In this document: in pieces, positions 34,574 to 38,866 of the stretch
Layout: the number at the start of each line of letters is the position of its first letter
How positions within the stretch are numbered: position 1 is the stretch's first letter
Assembly: GCA_913774955.1 (NCBI GenBank)
Contig: CAJYKV010000007.1
Location: forward strand, 333,693-397,692
Direction: 5' to 3'
Origin: an uncultured Acidovorax sp.
GTDB lineage: Bacteria; Pseudomonadota; Gammaproteobacteria; Burkholderiales; Burkholderiaceae_C
Length of the DNA stretch: 64,000 bases
Made by a program: the position numbers and the translations under genes
Notes under the pieces: model-generated
What the model saw: the letters and a program-made list of their open reading frames with translations, nothing else
What the model was told of the DNA's origin: nothing
Database searches by the model: none

Positions 34574-34775
34574 GGTTGGGGGGCGTTACGAGGTGAGCGC
34601 TGGAAGCGCAGTGTTCGTGATCTCGCGCTGCGGCCGATGCCGATACGCGCCGTGTGCTGGCATGCCGTGATGGCAGTTGTCCGTGGCACTGTCAAACCCG
34701 TTCTTCAATGCCTCAGTGAGTACCGTGCCTCAGCCAAGATGGGTTTGCAATTGGTAACTTTTCGTCTGCTGCTGC

Positions 34776-34814
34776 ACGGGTGCTGGCTGCGGCGGGAAGT
34801 TCATAACACGCATC
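34776..34814 (+). mobile_element. IS5 right-end remnant
   Basis: CACGGGTGCTGGCTGCGGCGGGAAGTTCATAACACGCATC matches the last about 39 bp of the IS5 at 37997-38035 (one substitution, one insertion), same orientation. Confidence 0.8.
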
Positions 34815-34906: not shown

Positions 34907-35185
34907 CTATTTATTTAATGCATTGTCAATGATTGAGAGATACCTAAAAACTTGATCGCGGTCACTATCTTTCTCTTTGTTTGATAAATCTGAATATTTG
35001 GTATGCGCCTGCCTTTCCCACTTCTCAACAAGATCAGGCGGGATAACTAAAGATCCATCGGCTAGTTTTTTGCACTTTGAGTGCATATATTTTTGCCAAT
35101 GAGACCATCTCTCATGCTCGATGTCTGCAAGCACTTCCACAATAGCCGATAGGTCGGAGCTGATCATGTTTTGCGTATTGGTCAT
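34907..35185 (-). CDS. Small RyR-repeat-like protein
   Basis: 92 aa; LADIEHERW and YSDLSNKEKDSDR resemble the RyR repeat pattern LAxxxHxxW...YxxLxxxEKxxDR; TAATG overlap with the caspase stop. Confidence 0.6.
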   Translation of the reverse strand: MTNTQNMISSDLSAIVEVLADIEHERWSHWQKYMHSKCKKLADGSLVIPPDLVEKWERQAHTKYSDLSNKEKDSDRDQVFRYLSIIDNALNK

Positions 35186-36171
35186 TAAATCCTTCCTAGA
35201 GCGGCAAGGCTTCTGTAATGCTCGCCGAGTGCCGTTAATTTGACCGATTTACTACCCATGGCAGCGTAGTACATGTGCTCCGCCTCCAGGGGAACAACAA
35301 GACCTACACGGTTGAAGTTTTGCAAGATTTTGAAAATTGGTGTTTTGAGAGGGTCAGGTGATGGAATGCTCATATCATCACTGCCATTCCTCGCAGGTTC
35401 GTAGGTGGGATCTAAGGGAAAATGATATCCGGGCGACGGGAAAAATTCATTGATCCTTCGGAGTTCCGTTGTTAGCAGTGGAGGTTGAACCTTACGAAGA
35501 GAAATAAAGCGCTTTACGTTTGTTTTGAAAACTGGGCGCTGTTCGCTCCAAGCGCCTAATGATTGATCGATGTGAGCATAAATGCTACCCGGCGAGACAT
35601 CGCCAACTAAGTTGGCCGCCGCACCGGTTAAAGCATTTACTAGTAAGTTGGTAAAAACTCCGCCACCACCACTCTCAAGTGCGTACTGATCTTTTGTTGA
35701 GGCTGTCAGGATCGTTACGCCATCATTTATCTCAGCAATGCTGTCGTTAAGAGCAGACGCCCCAGCAATGCCGCCATGGCAGCTATCGAGGATAATCACC
35801 TTATTGGCTATCTTGGACTTATTCGCCAAGACCATTATTTCTGCCAAAGAAACCCCGTCGTTACCTTCGGAATCAACATCCGATGAGCATATGTATCCGC
35901 CGGTTACGTCGAAGTGTCCATGTCCAGCGAAGTAGAGTAATGCAATGTCTCCTGTGTCAGAGAATAGTTGGGCAATATTGTCTTTCAGCTGTTTTTTGGA
36001 TATTGCATTGTTTGTGTCCGTGCTGCATATCTGTTTAACCTCGAAATTTCTCGATCCATCTGCGTGAAATTCAAGTAATGCGCCAACTCTTGAGGCGTCA
36101 TTGACACAGCCATAAAGTGGAGAAACTTTTGAGTAGTAGTTGACGCCAACTACTAAAGCTTTTTTGGTCAT
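35185..36171 (-). CDS. Caspase-like protease (peptidase C14) with C-terminal accessory domain
   Basis: [24 protein letters not shown]84G, ILDSC131HGG, GGGVFT; ATGA overlap with the upstream TIR gene. Confidence 0.93.
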
Positions 36172-36539
36172 AGCGAATCAATCCAAGAGGCTATATTTTC
36201 CCATGTCCAAGACATTGTTTGAACATTTGGTAAAGAAGTTGAGTCATTCTTATAAGCCCAAATGCCTCGAACGTTTTTCCCTTCTTCCTTTGCGCAAGCA
36301 ATTTCCCACTTTTGCCCTGTCGAGTTTAAAGAGTTTTGGGTGGATATCACCAAAACACCATCGGCTCTTTTTATTCTAGTTCTGACTTTTGTCTTCCAAT
36401 CCTCTTCGTATGCTTCTTTAACGGACATGTCTATATATTCAAAAGGACTGCGTGTATTAAGGGATTGTCCTTTGATCATGTCGCGAATCCGTTCATCCTC
36501 GATGGCAAAGGCTACAAAAATGACTTTTTTATTACTCAA
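36168..36539 (-). CDS. ThsB-like short TIR protein (MTH538/DUF1863-type)
   Basis: TTG start after AAGGA; [25 protein letters not shown]79I catalytic-type Glu. Confidence 0.82.
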
Positions 36540-36548
36540 GATATTCCT

Positions 36549-37040
36549 TTAGAGTTGACCCAGCGAACGACGAAGTTCTTGGTAGAAAGTCTTCGTTTCC
36601 CTTTCCGAAAAATTCTCAAGGACAAGACCTGCTGTACTGCGCGATACAGTTCTTTGGCGAGTTATGGCTGCTGACTGCCTTGCATATTCATCCAAATCTC
36701 GGTCGCTTGTAAGGTAGGGCCATTTTTTGAGATATTCAGGAACATCTACCGCCCTGTTTGCATAGGTGGCTAGCGGAAAGTCTTTTTCGCTTGCAACACC
36801 TATTTCCCATGGCACCCACCAAGAGTCCTTTGTGGCATATGAAATTACGGCAATCAATTGATTGCACTTGCCCATCTCGGCCTTCAAGTGGTCCGCTAGT
36901 TCGTATCCGTTTTTGTACAGCGCAGTATCTACGACGTCTAGATATGTTTCGATGCCATGGTTGATTCTCAGATGGTTTGCCACTCCGAGAGCGGTTGTTG
37001 AATCTTCTTTCTTGTGAGAGATAAATATTTTTGACTTCAT
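36549..37040 (-). CDS. TIR domain protein (TIR_2-like)
   Basis: KIFISHKKED, YLD, SWWVPWE79IGVA; start placed at ATG 37040. Confidence 0.9.
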   Translation of the reverse strand: MKSKIFISHKKEDSTTALGVANHLRINHGIETYLDVVDTALYKNGYELADHLKAEMGKCNQLIAVISYATKDSWWVPWEIGVASEKDFPLATYANRAVDVPEYLKKWPYLTSDRDLDEYARQSAAITRQRTVSRSTAGLVLENFSERETKTFYQELRRSLGQL

Positions 37041-37082
37041 ATTCAAAAAAATAGTGAGACCAGGAGGTTGACCGCTTTTATA

Positions 37083-37109
37083 ATTATGCAAATTATTGCT
37101 GAATGTCAA
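37083..37109 (-). promoter_or_regulatory. Candidate sigma70 promoter of the TIR-caspase operon
   Basis: Perfect TTGACA (37109-37104) with CATAAT 15 bp downstream (short spacer) in AT-rich DNA. Confidence 0.4.
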
Positions 37110-37171: not shown

Positions 37172-38035
37172 GAGCGTGTTATGGACTTTGGGCCCGTGGG
37201 CGCGAAGCCAAGGGTAGAGTTTGCAGATGCTCCGCAAGCCCTACCCGACGGACGTCAGCAATGATGAATGTAGCCTCGCTGCGCCCTACCTGACCTTGAT
37301 GGACCAGCACGCTCCCCACCGCGAGCATGATCTGCGCGAAGTCTTCAACGCCCTGCGCTGGCTGGTGCGCGCGGGAGCGCCATGGCGAATGCGCCCAATG
37401 ATCTGCCGCCGTGGGAGGCGGTCTACCAGCAGAGCCGGCGCTGGCTGGACGCGGGTTGCTTCGAGGCGATGGTGTCTGACCTGCGATCCATCATCCGCTT
37501 GGCACAAGGACGCCAAGGTCAGCCAGCGCCGTCGTGATTGACGGGCGCACGCTGCAATCGAGCTGCGAAAGCGGCCCACGCGCAGGCTACGACGGCTACA
37601 AACGCAAGCGTGGCAGCAAGGTGCACATGGCTGTGGGCCACCTGCTGGCGGTGTATGTCACGCCTGCAGGCAAACAGGAACGTGCGCAAGTACAGCGCCT
37701 GTGCGGAGACGTGCAACAGGCCACGGGCCACACGGTGAAACTGGCTTGGGCCGACCAGGGCTATACGGGGGAAGCGCCATCTAAGGCAGCGCAGGACAAC
37801 AGCATCAACCTGCAGATCGTGAAGCTGCCCGAGGCGAAGAAGGGCTTTGTACTGCTGCCGCGGCGCTGGGTGGTGGCGAGAAGCTTAGGTCGGCTGACGA
37901 GGCTTCGCAGGCTCTCACGGGACTATGAGCGGTTGCCGGAAGTGCTCGGCGAATTGCATTTCTTGGTCTTCGCTGTGCTGATGTTGCTCTCCGTCCCACG
38001 GGTGCTGGCTGCGGCGGGAAGTTCATAATACGCTC
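37172..38035 (+). mobile_element. IS5 family (IS1031-like) insertion sequence, defective
   Basis: 864 bp; IRL GAGCGTGTTATGGACTT vs IRR (rc) GAGCGTATTATGAACTT, 15/17; transposase RKPYPTD, YDGYKRKRGSKVH, ADQGY, LLPRRWVV. Confidence 0.92.
37227..38028 (+). pseudogene. IS5 transposase pseudogene
   Basis: 1-bp deletion near 37393; the usual DTL of AVDTLG is missing; catalytic WVVE reads WVVA (GCG at 37876). Confidence 0.85.
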
Positions 38036-38467
38036 TACACTGTATTTGGCCGTTGGAGCGATCCGTTGGACGATTTCTACGGTGCAATGGGGGAGGCGCA
38101 GATCAAGGTCGCTGTGTCTGGCGTGGTCACTCCCCGAGGTCCGGGACGCGCGCAGGTAGAGGTCGACGAATTGGGGTTTTATTTGCGAGATTCCTACGAT
38201 TTCAACGACGGCAATTCTTTCATCTCGCAGCCGCTGGGATGCTGGGGCTTCGAGGGCATGGAGTGCGGTCTTCGAACGAGCATGGATGTACCCATTTCGG
38301 ACACCGTGGTCGATGAGGAGCCTTCGGTTGTGCAAGGCTACAAATACGTTGTTCAAAACGCCCATTTCCGCGAATGGAGCGAGAAAAACCAGAAGGGCGG
38401 CGACTTCATGGTGTTGTCCAATGTGCACAGGGTGCGATTGCCATTCCCTGTAAAACTGGAGTGGTGA
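38036..38467 (+). pseudogene. 5'-truncated DUF6402 family gene (C-terminal half)
   Basis: YTVFGRWSDPLDDFYGAMG... aligns from Y155 of the 8375..9268 protein, about 70% identical by hand count; begins exactly at the IS IRR. Confidence 0.88.
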
Positions 38468-38482
38468 ATTGATGGTTGAAGT

Positions 38483-38866
38483 ATGAATGGAAAACGACTG
38501 GTGAGATGGACCGCCGTTGCGGTGTCGTTGCTGATCGTGGTCGGGTATTCCGCAGTCCCAAGGTACGATCGCAGCCACTATAGCCCGCGGCATGTGTACC
38601 GGCTCGATTATTACGAAGCCTCATGGCTGCAGCGGCTCATGCACTGGGATATGAAATATCCCCATGTGATCCGCTTGTACCGCGTCCAACCAGAAACCCT
38701 GTTGGGCGAAAGCGACGTCGTGGATCTCTGGTTGAATGGGGACATCAATTGGTGGTTCGACCCCCCGCTCAATGTCGTGCGCGTGGGGCAAGACGTGGTC
38801 TTCGAGAACATTCCTCCAGAGTGCGTCGATTGTCCGAGACTGCCAGACTCCGTTCTCATGCCCTGA
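38483..38866 (+). CDS. Membrane-anchored CxxC protein, DUF6402-associated paralog 4 (putative immunity protein)
   Basis: 127 aa; TM helix; SPRHVYRLDYYE; GQDVVFENIPPECVDCP. Confidence 0.82.
   Translation: MNGKRLVRWTAVAVSLLIVVGYSAVPRYDRSHYSPRHVYRLDYYEASWLQRLMHWDMKYPHVIRLYRVQPETLLGESDVVDLWLNGDINWWFDPPLNVVRVGQDVVFENIPPECVDCPRLPDSVLMP

Follow-up and report, generated by a model that had tools for sequence, protein, structure and literature searches.

Here we describe a 64,000-nt stretch of the genome of an uncultured Acidovorax sp. (contig CAJYKV010000007.1; hereafter the window, meaning the whole stretch, with coordinates counted from its first letter), in which the last gene of a TIR-caspase operon encodes a 92-residue protein resembling the ryanodine receptor (RyR) repeat, named RyRL. 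Comparison with related loci identifies RyRL as a conserved but optional third gene of type IV Thoeris, and as a member of a divergent host-encoded RyR-like family with a large stand-alone phage branch. We tentatively propose, with somewhat less than even confidence, that RyRL represents a host-encoded off-switch, the first for a Thoeris system, i.e. a RyR-repeat-derived enzyme or stoichiometric sponge, which would remove the signal N7-cyclic ADP-ribose (N7-cADPR) from within the operon and set the firing threshold of the caspase-like executioner.

The operon is composed of four genes on the minus strand, in the order TIRa, TIRb, caspase and RyRL, with the following elements:

36549..37040, minus strand: TIRa, the second TIR (TIR_2), 163 amino acids (aa) counted from the ATG at 37040.
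36168..36539, minus strand: TIRb, a ThsB-type TIR of 123 aa, matching PF08937 and PADLOC ThsB models.
35185..36171, minus strand: caspase-like protease, the type IV Thoeris effector, 328 aa, matching Peptidase_C14 (PF00656, E=1.1e-19).
35183..35197, minus strand: translational-coupling junction, where the caspase TAA (35187-35185) and the RyRL ATG (35185-35183) share one base, as TAATG.
34907..35185, minus strand: RyRL, the 92-aa RyR-repeat-like protein and last gene of the operon, supported by its open reading frame (ORF) and by the family profiles.

The RyRL frame thus starts inside the caspase stop codon, as the initial annotation had claimed, and a Shine-Dalgarno-like AGGAAGGA is present at 35190-35197, 4 nt upstream of its ATG. 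The low, island-like GC (guanine plus cytosine) content and the two residue motifs given in the same annotation were likewise recovered. Indeed, GC content drops to 0.40-0.47 over 35000-37000 as compared to about 0.70 in the flanks (the genome is about 70% GC), and the motifs L19-A20-x3-H24-x2-W27 and Y64-x2-L67-x3-E71-K72-x2-D75-R76 are present in the translation residue for residue. Further upstream, the TIRb stop codon overlaps the caspase start as ATGA, and the caspase carries GHG at residues 83-85 and the catalytic Cys131 within DSCHGG. For TIRa, which is present in a minority of related loci only, the mechanical ORF list runs on to a TTG at 37109.

Type IV Thoeris has been described as a two-gene operon of Pseudomonas sp. 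1-7, composed of PsTIR and PsCaspase (Rousset et al., bioRxiv 10.1101/2024.10.24.620036). The PsTIR sequence was taken from Table S2 of this preprint and the native Pseudomonas sp. 1-7 locus was located via the exact PsTIR protein. TIRb and the N7-cADPR-producing PsTIR have equal length (123 aa) and align without gaps, with 92 of 123 residues identical (75%). The window caspase and PsCaspase, both of 328 aa, are 62% identical over residues 1-328, and the catalytic Cys131 corresponds to PsCaspase C129. Since this alignment runs from end to end, the caspase retains its own C-terminal sensor domain. The overlapping TIR-caspase junction is also common to the window and the Pseudomonas sp. 1-7 system. 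We regard TIRb and the caspase as orthologues of the validated type IV pair, and N7-cADPR synthesis and phage defence by the window system would be predicted from this orthology. On the other hand, the window system has four genes, with a second TIR and RyRL beyond the published two. Several RyRL-bearing organisms are also listed among the type IV systems in Table S1 of the same preprint (bioRxiv 10.1101/2024.10.24.620036). Apart from this, the IMG gene identifiers of TIR and caspase differ by 2 or 3 in many systems of that table, which points to intervening genes, undiscussed in the published two-gene description. No description of RyRL as a third gene was found in the literature searched, and the ancillary genes reported in a Thoeris survey are Cap2/3 and Cap9-11, with no RyR-like gene.

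To see how constantly RyRL accompanies this system, its co-occurrence with TIR-caspase loci was counted across genomes. A pattern scan of 185,579 species genomes gave 267 relatives, and the linkage counts refer to the best 80 loci of these 267. A caspase (51-64% identical) is encoded directly upstream of RyRL, on the same strand, in 70 of the 80 loci and is usually preceded by a PsTIR-like TIR. The caspase-RyRL junction is tight in all 70 collinear loci: the two genes overlap in 20 of them, are separated by 0-15 nt in 48 and by 16-17 nt in the remaining two. In five further loci the caspase is no more than 2.5 kb away and arranged differently: L064 and L078 are convergent, L076 is divergent, L023 has the caspase downstream and L041 has it at a distance of 1.2 kb. 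In the other five, RyRL lies less than 450 nt from a contig end, and two of these adjoin a TIRa homologue. The linkage spans Pseudomonadota, Actinomycetota, Acidobacteriota, Planctomycetota and other phyla, through several rearrangements. The association with TIR-caspase loci is very strong, with 70 collinear and 5 nearby loci out of 80.

RyRL is, however, dispensable for the core system. When all six reading frames around the validated Pseudomonas sp. 1-7 locus were searched with the family hidden Markov model (HMM), no RyRL turned up within 4 kb, and RyRL is also absent from two enterobacterial plasmids, one of E. coli (IncI) and one of Providencia, despite caspases 54% and 64% identical. 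Of 44 listed type-IV-like caspases that are full length and encoded on plasmids, about 20 have RyRL nearby; the gene accompanies 18 of the 25 caspases that are at least 50% identical to that of the window and 2 of the 19 below 50%. Close relatives with and without RyRL are interleaved, indicating repeated gain and loss. Since the core system works without RyRL in Pseudomonas sp. 1-7, this protein modulates the system and is not part of its core. Two roles were considered and rejected. An essential part of RyRL in the core mechanism is contradicted by the validated locus, from which it is absent, and the replacement of a missing sensor domain is contradicted by the window caspase, which is complete and can be aligned with PsCaspase over its entire length. 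With the C-terminal sensor region kept, RyRL would be an extra signal-binding module and not a replacement.

Several loci depart from the common layout. For about ten caspase-RyRL pairs from actinobacteria, no PsTIR-like gene could be detected. In three of them (L020:1480-4959, L060:1510-4953 and L077:15-3053), a multi-transmembrane protein of about 1,150 aa precedes the caspase-RyRL pair in place of the small TIR. It has no Pfam domain beyond a sub-threshold PQQ_2/beta-propeller match, and its central HIVLLRSFADD...VIELREV stretch is TIR-like by eye only; this protein may be an alternative signal generator or sensor for the pair. On the Rhizobium rhizogenes plasmid pC6.5d (L164), two divergent TIRs are followed by RyRL (135 aa), the caspase and a metallophosphoesterase, with a SIR2 gene adjoining, and on a Sphingomonas parapaucimobilis plasmid (L165) the order is TIR-like, caspase, S8 serine peptidase, CHAT-domain protein, TIR and RyRL. 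The phosphoesterase of the former and the protease cascade of the latter may be further effectors or signal processors. Furthermore, a DUF6338 membrane protein is encoded about 600 nt upstream of PsTIR in three of three genomic contexts of the Pseudomonas sp. 1-7 system (L168-L170:2799-3389), and in Micromonospora (L063:4017-4823), one of the loci with no detectable PsTIR-like gene, about 150 nt separate the end of a DUF6338 protein from the caspase-RyRL pair downstream of it. DUF6338 proteins may be another unrecognised accessory of type IV Thoeris.

The RyRL family is large. An exhaustive HMMER search gave 5,952 clusters at 50% identity with E<=1e-3, 4,047 of them with E<=1e-10, and thousands of homologous clusters together with invariant residues show that the RyRL ORF is not a chance one. 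Across 43 close homologues, each of about 90 aa, the residues E23, H24, R26, W27, W30, Q31, W56, Q59, L67, E71, S74, D75, R76 and V79 are invariant. When 82 bacterial and 82 viral sequences were compared, H24, W27, W30, E71, S74 and D75 were 100% conserved in both sets and W56 and Q59 95-100% conserved, whereas R26, H29, Q31 and H35 are near-invariant in operon-linked RyRL only, R26 being conserved in 52% of viral copies. H29 and H35 are found in 97-98% of operon-linked copies, and the commonest viral residues at these positions are Gly (26%) and Phe (56%), respectively. This host-phage difference at H29, H35, R26 and Q31 could mark a split between enzyme and sponge or a difference in ligand. 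No family in PHROGs, PADLOC or NCBIfam covers RyRL; matches to WecE-type transaminases in NCBIfam (E about 4e-4, far below cut-off) look like chance and were set aside. One natural variant, P0168 (183 aa), has the RyRL unit duplicated in tandem within a single chain, with a degenerate second copy that keeps E-H-x2-W and has lost EK-x2-DR. This tandem mirrors the R12/R34 tandem-repeat architecture of animal RyR.

Sequence profiles relate RyRL to the RyR repeat. The Pfam RyR profile (PF02026) matches RyRL at E=9e-4 in one collinear stretch, with residues 7-85 on profile positions 12-81 of 91, and reaches E-values of 9e-6 and 1.9e-5 for the best relatives. RyR is the sole recurring Pfam family, being the top family for 41 of 43 close and 58 of 149 diverse relatives, and a precomputed PF02026 match exists for 2 of the 43 homologues. 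Two profiles, A1 for the close family and A3 for the broad family, were searched against 177,635 PDB sequences. With A1, 14 of the 15 matches at E<=10 are RyR repeats (best E 1.8e-4), the remaining one being a homeodomain protein at E=0.033; with A3, all 15 matches at E<=1 are RyR repeats (best E 9.9e-8), and a single-domain bacterial RyR protein is matched at E=1.4e-3. Most of the score in these PDB matches comes from the last helix, and the single-domain E-values, from 1e-3 to 0.1, are modest. In the HMMER alignments both RyRL motifs align in order to the RyR1 and B. thetaiotaomicron RyR repeats. Indeed, the RyR signature, an A-E-x2-H-E-x-W helix followed by a P-Y-x2-L-x3-E-K-x2-D-R helix, is present in RyRL in this order, as L19-A20-D-I-E-H24-E-R-W27 and Y64-S-D-L67-S-N-K-E71-K72-D-S-D75-R76. 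Bacterial stand-alone RyR proteins (e.g. of B. thetaiotaomicron, PDB 3NRT and 6UAG) and the animal RyR Repeat12 and Repeat34 are thus all that A3, and nearly all that A1, retrieved from the PDB sequences. The AlphaFold2 model of RyRL (predicted local distance difference test score, pLDDT, of 94.1) is composed of four helices and a beta-hairpin. The tandem P0168, meant to mimic the R12 pseudo-dimer, gave an unusable model from its single sequence (pLDDT 50). Altogether, RyRL is quite probably a divergent derivative of the RyR repeat.

A functional precedent is provided by two 2026 preprints on phage RyR-domain (R12-like) proteins acting on Thoeris signals, RyDEP and RyR Tad. RyDEP is an inverting glycosidase that linearises 2'cADPR and 3'cADPR; H75 and D117 form its catalytic dyad, W78 stacks on the adenine and H100 binds phosphate, and several homologues with the same residues are sponges, not enzymes (PMC13232231). 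RyR Tad sponges 3'cADPR, 2'cADPR and canonical cADPR in a pocket with H129, W132, H154, K147, K170 and D171, showing that RyR-type pockets accept 2'cADPR, 3'cADPR and the base-linked canonical cADPR (bioRxiv 10.64898/2026.06.04.730250). Type IV Thoeris, N7-cADPR and host-encoded copies go unmentioned in both preprints. These phage proteins are dimers binding cADPR isomers. RyRL resembles them in being small and helical, with H-x2-W on one helix and an acidic D on the last, E/K-rich helix, so that H24, W27 and D75 are the motif equivalents of H75, W78 and D117 in RyDEP and of H129, W132 and D171 in RyR Tad. For D75, hhalign places the residue on RyDEP D117; for the His and Trp the equivalence is based on the common H-x2-W motif. 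On the other hand, RyRL lacks the N-terminal pseudo-repeat and matches no PHROGs family, while RyDEP matches phrog_5154, phrog_11782 and phrog_18865. Furthermore, RyRL is encoded by the host within a defence operon, with N7-cADPR as expected ligand, whereas RyDEP and RyR Tad are encoded by phages and act on 2'cADPR and 3'cADPR. Judged from these comparisons, RyRL is a separate and much more divergent subfamily, outside the RyDEP clade. Since RyDEP-family sponges keep the catalytic dyad, a sponge and a glycosidase are not separable from sequence alone.

RyRL relatives are also carried by phages. In IMG/VR, 136 contigs encode one, and of the 79 contigs fetched from this set, 78 have no caspase or TIR within 5 kb. 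No conserved neighbours of the viral RyRL genes were found on these contigs, the surroundings being terminase, portal and methyltransferase genes. For instance, gp044 of the Microcystis phage Ma-LMM01 and its relatives, 40% identical to RyRL, stand alone. The viral homologues are 33-60% identical to the window RyRL and come from very diverse viral contigs. Such stand-alone copies in unrelated viral neighbourhoods follow a pattern known from anti-defence genes. Two sequences labelled as viral have a different arrangement: an 'UNVERIFIED: Bacteriophage sp.' scaffold (L081, GenBank MT835687.1) contains a TIRb-caspase-RyRL cassette, and an IMG/VR contig (L085) contains a caspase-RyRL pair that has two oppositely oriented TIR genes upstream of it. 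Either a (pro)phage carries the defence system in these cases, or bacterial DNA was assigned to viruses.

Inhibitors of type IV Thoeris are already known, namely Tad2_71 and TadIV-1, both small phage sponges of N7-cADPR (PMC13243611; PMC12393519). Their activity, N7-cADPR sequestration, is the one proposed here for the phage RyRL homologues, but their folds differ from the one proposed for RyRL: the structure of TadIV-1 is described as unlike that of any known sponge, and Tad2 belongs to the DUF2829 family. Neither of the two has been reported within a host operon.

From these data the following model can be drawn. Upon phage infection, the TIR protein(s) would turn NAD+ (nicotinamide adenine dinucleotide) into a cyclic ADP-ribose signal, most likely N7-cADPR, since TIRb is 75% identical to PsTIR, and this signal would activate the caspase-like protease via the caspase's own C-terminal domain. 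RyRL, probably a dimeric nucleotide-binding protein built from the RyR-repeat (R12) fold, would bind the same signal in a pocket formed by H24, W27 and D75. It would then either sequester the signal, as a sponge, or hydrolyse its C1'' glycosidic bond to give linear ADPR, as a glycosidase, and in both cases act as a built-in negative regulator of type IV Thoeris. Translational coupling would keep the RyRL:caspase ratio fixed, and since RyRL is co-translated with the effector in this ratio, it would set a threshold protecting the cell: basal or stray signal would be absorbed, and the indiscriminate protease would fire above the threshold only. The E. coli 328 operon was slightly toxic on induction, which makes autoimmunity a real risk for the system. 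Phages, in turn, would have acquired RyRL as a lone gene with which they quench the signal and evade the defence. We give roughly even chances to the central part of this model, in which RyRL binds the TIR-made signal in a RyR-type pocket, sequesters or hydrolyses it and so sets the caspase threshold. The starting points of the model, i.e. the operon anatomy, the orthology, the conservation including the motif residues, the coupling, the optional presence and the host/phage split, are direct observations. The idea of a signal buffer or sponge, offered speculatively in the initial annotation, has gained a direct experimental precedent, as phage RyR-domain proteins sequester or hydrolyse cADPR isomers (PMC13232231; bioRxiv 10.64898/2026.06.04.730250).

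The proposed logic has a parallel in another immune system. In type III CRISPR, host ring nucleases remove the cyclic-nucleotide second messenger and thus reset or limit an abortive-infection effector, and a viral homologue, AcrIII-1, serves in anti-defence. The ring nucleases and the viral AcrIII-1 are reportedly treated together by Athukoralage and colleagues in 2020. By analogy, RyRL would be the host signal remover and its viral homologues the anti-defence genes, though the fold, the ligand (cyclic oligoadenylate) and the immune system are unrelated in the two cases.

Several observations weigh against a signal-removing role of RyRL. Its score against PF02026, 19.8 bits, is under the gathering score of 27.4 bits, and Foldseek searches with the pLDDT-94 monomer model gave nothing with E<4 in the PDB or E<0.5 in BFVD, although this method has difficulty with monomers that are small, all-helical and taken from obligate dimers. 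Since sequence profiles consistently point to RyR, we do not read this null result as disproof of homology; the RyR-repeat resemblance pointed out in the initial annotation is upheld at the level of sequence profiles, by the PF02026 and PDB matches. Compared with the bacterial stand-alone and animal RyR repeats, in particular, profile scores are modest and no structural match was returned by Foldseek. Alignment by hhalign with nine RyDEP homologues recovered the C-terminal motif P-Y-x2-L-x3-E-K-x2-D only, at 7.5-8.9% probability over 13-16 columns. The GWxYG and K-T-H-P motifs, invariant in RyDEP homologues and including the phosphate-binding H100 of RyDEP, are missing from RyRL, which has in their place W30-Q-K-Y-M-H35...D43-G-S-L-x-I-P and an extra helix at 50-61 with W56 and Q59. 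The linkage in N7-cADPR is N-glycosidic, as opposed to the O-glycosidic ribose-ribose bond cut by RyDEP. Conservation of H29 and H35 in the operon-linked set only suggests that host and phage copies may act differently. Finally, the constant adjacency to the caspase, even in the ten or so loci with no detected PsTIR-like gene, would be just as well explained by a direct protein partner. What we infer is the RyR fold, the ligand, the choice between sponge and enzyme and the direction of regulation.

If the partner is indeed the caspase, RyRL could be a direct inhibitor or chaperone, antitoxin-like or comparable to the caspase inhibitors of animal viruses, which would hold the protease or its sensor domain inactive until the signal arrives, and the phage copies would inhibit the caspase directly. 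Such a role would explain the translational coupling in 70 of 70 collinear loci and the persistence of the pair where no PsTIR-like or TIRa-like gene is detected; it is also consistent with an optional gene, as expected of a modulator, and with the unconfirmed RyR fold match. We nevertheless hold it to be unlikely. The universally invariant residues are those that bind nucleotides in RyR-domain proteins, RyRL adjoins a TIR gene and not the caspase in L005, L076 and L165, and the divergent (33-60%), diverse viral homologues are more easily explained by a common small-molecule target than by many divergent caspases. The opposite direction of regulation is still less probable: as a positive accessory, RyRL would capture the signal, stabilise it or hand it over to the caspase, or sense ATP/ADP like RY12 of RyR1, and thereby sensitise or gate the response. 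Co-expression with the effector through the tight junction suits this role, and RyR repeat domains are reported to bind adenine nucleotides and are proposed ADP sensors (PMC13642953; PMC12627627). However, the two-gene system is fully functional without RyRL, and stand-alone copies of an activator would harm the phages carrying them.

Since the type IV caspase cleaves after Arg and R26 and R76 of RyRL are conserved, RyRL could also be a pro-effector or other substrate of the caspase that gains toxicity or activity when cut at an arginine; that it is a substrate was an option in the initial annotation as well. This is very improbable: the stand-alone phage copies fit it poorly, as a lone pro-toxin is not expected in phages, R26 is conserved in just about half of the viral copies, caspase cleavage is already indiscriminate, and RyRL is predicted to be a compact four-helix protein with no recognisable effector domain. 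It is hardly conceivable that RyRL is a mere hitchhiker of the mobile cassette with no role in defence. The cassette is bounded by insertion sequence (IS) remnants and RyRL is absent from many related systems, but it stays linked to the system in Pseudomonadota, Actinomycetota, Acidobacteriota, Planctomycetota and further phyla despite rearrangements, and specific RyRL residues are under strong purifying selection.

Should RyRL bind or degrade N7-cADPR, a signal terminator or threshold setter built into a Thoeris system would be known for the first time, comparable to the CRISPR ring nucleases, and the tolerance of cells to an indiscriminate protease would be explained. The thousands of RyRL relatives that stand alone in phages, belonging to a very large family (5,952 clusters in the whole family), would then be candidate inhibitors of TIR-caspase immunity and a large unrecognised anti-type-IV-Thoeris family. 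The link between RyR repeats and cADPR-type immune signals, newly found in phage counter-defence, would be extended to the host side, with a TIR, a caspase and a RyR-type cADPR-binding module united in one bacterial pathway. This would support the descent of cADPR sensing by animal ryanodine receptors from prokaryotic immune signalling.

The cassette has the surroundings of a mobile element, with the following features:

34775..34811, plus strand: left copy of a 37-nt direct repeat bounding the low-GC cassette, resembling a solo IS end.
37997..38033, plus strand: right copy of the 37-nt direct repeat, the end of an IS5-family element.
37221..38028, plus strand: IS4/IS5-family transposase in two overlapping ORFs (DUF4096 and DDE_Tnp_1), adjoining the cassette.
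37080..37109, minus strand: sigma-70-like promoter match (TTGACA-18-AATTAT, 10 of 12 positions), about 40 nt upstream of TIRa, a consensus match only.

The two repeat copies, 97% identical, bracket the TIR-caspase-RyRL cassette and, together with the IS element, suggest that it was acquired or rearranged via the IS. A dicarboxylate symporter gene lies on one side of the cassette and other chromosomal genes on the other. Promoter-like matches across the region are no more numerous than expected by chance, and the promoter/terminator scan gave no terminator-like site 3' of RyRL on the minus strand. Directly beside the IS, the ORF at 38066-38467 matches the C-terminal half of DUF6402 only (profile positions 141-278 of 278, E=2e-42), which indicates a truncated gene; it is followed by a 127-aa ORF (38483-38866) with no Pfam match. 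GC content of the 38066-38866 region is intermediate, at 0.54-0.61. The DUF6402 remnant and the 127-aa ORF may be what is left of other island cargo, possibly a toxin/immunity-like pair. Among public sequencing runs, the locus was present in plant-associated metagenome DNA only.

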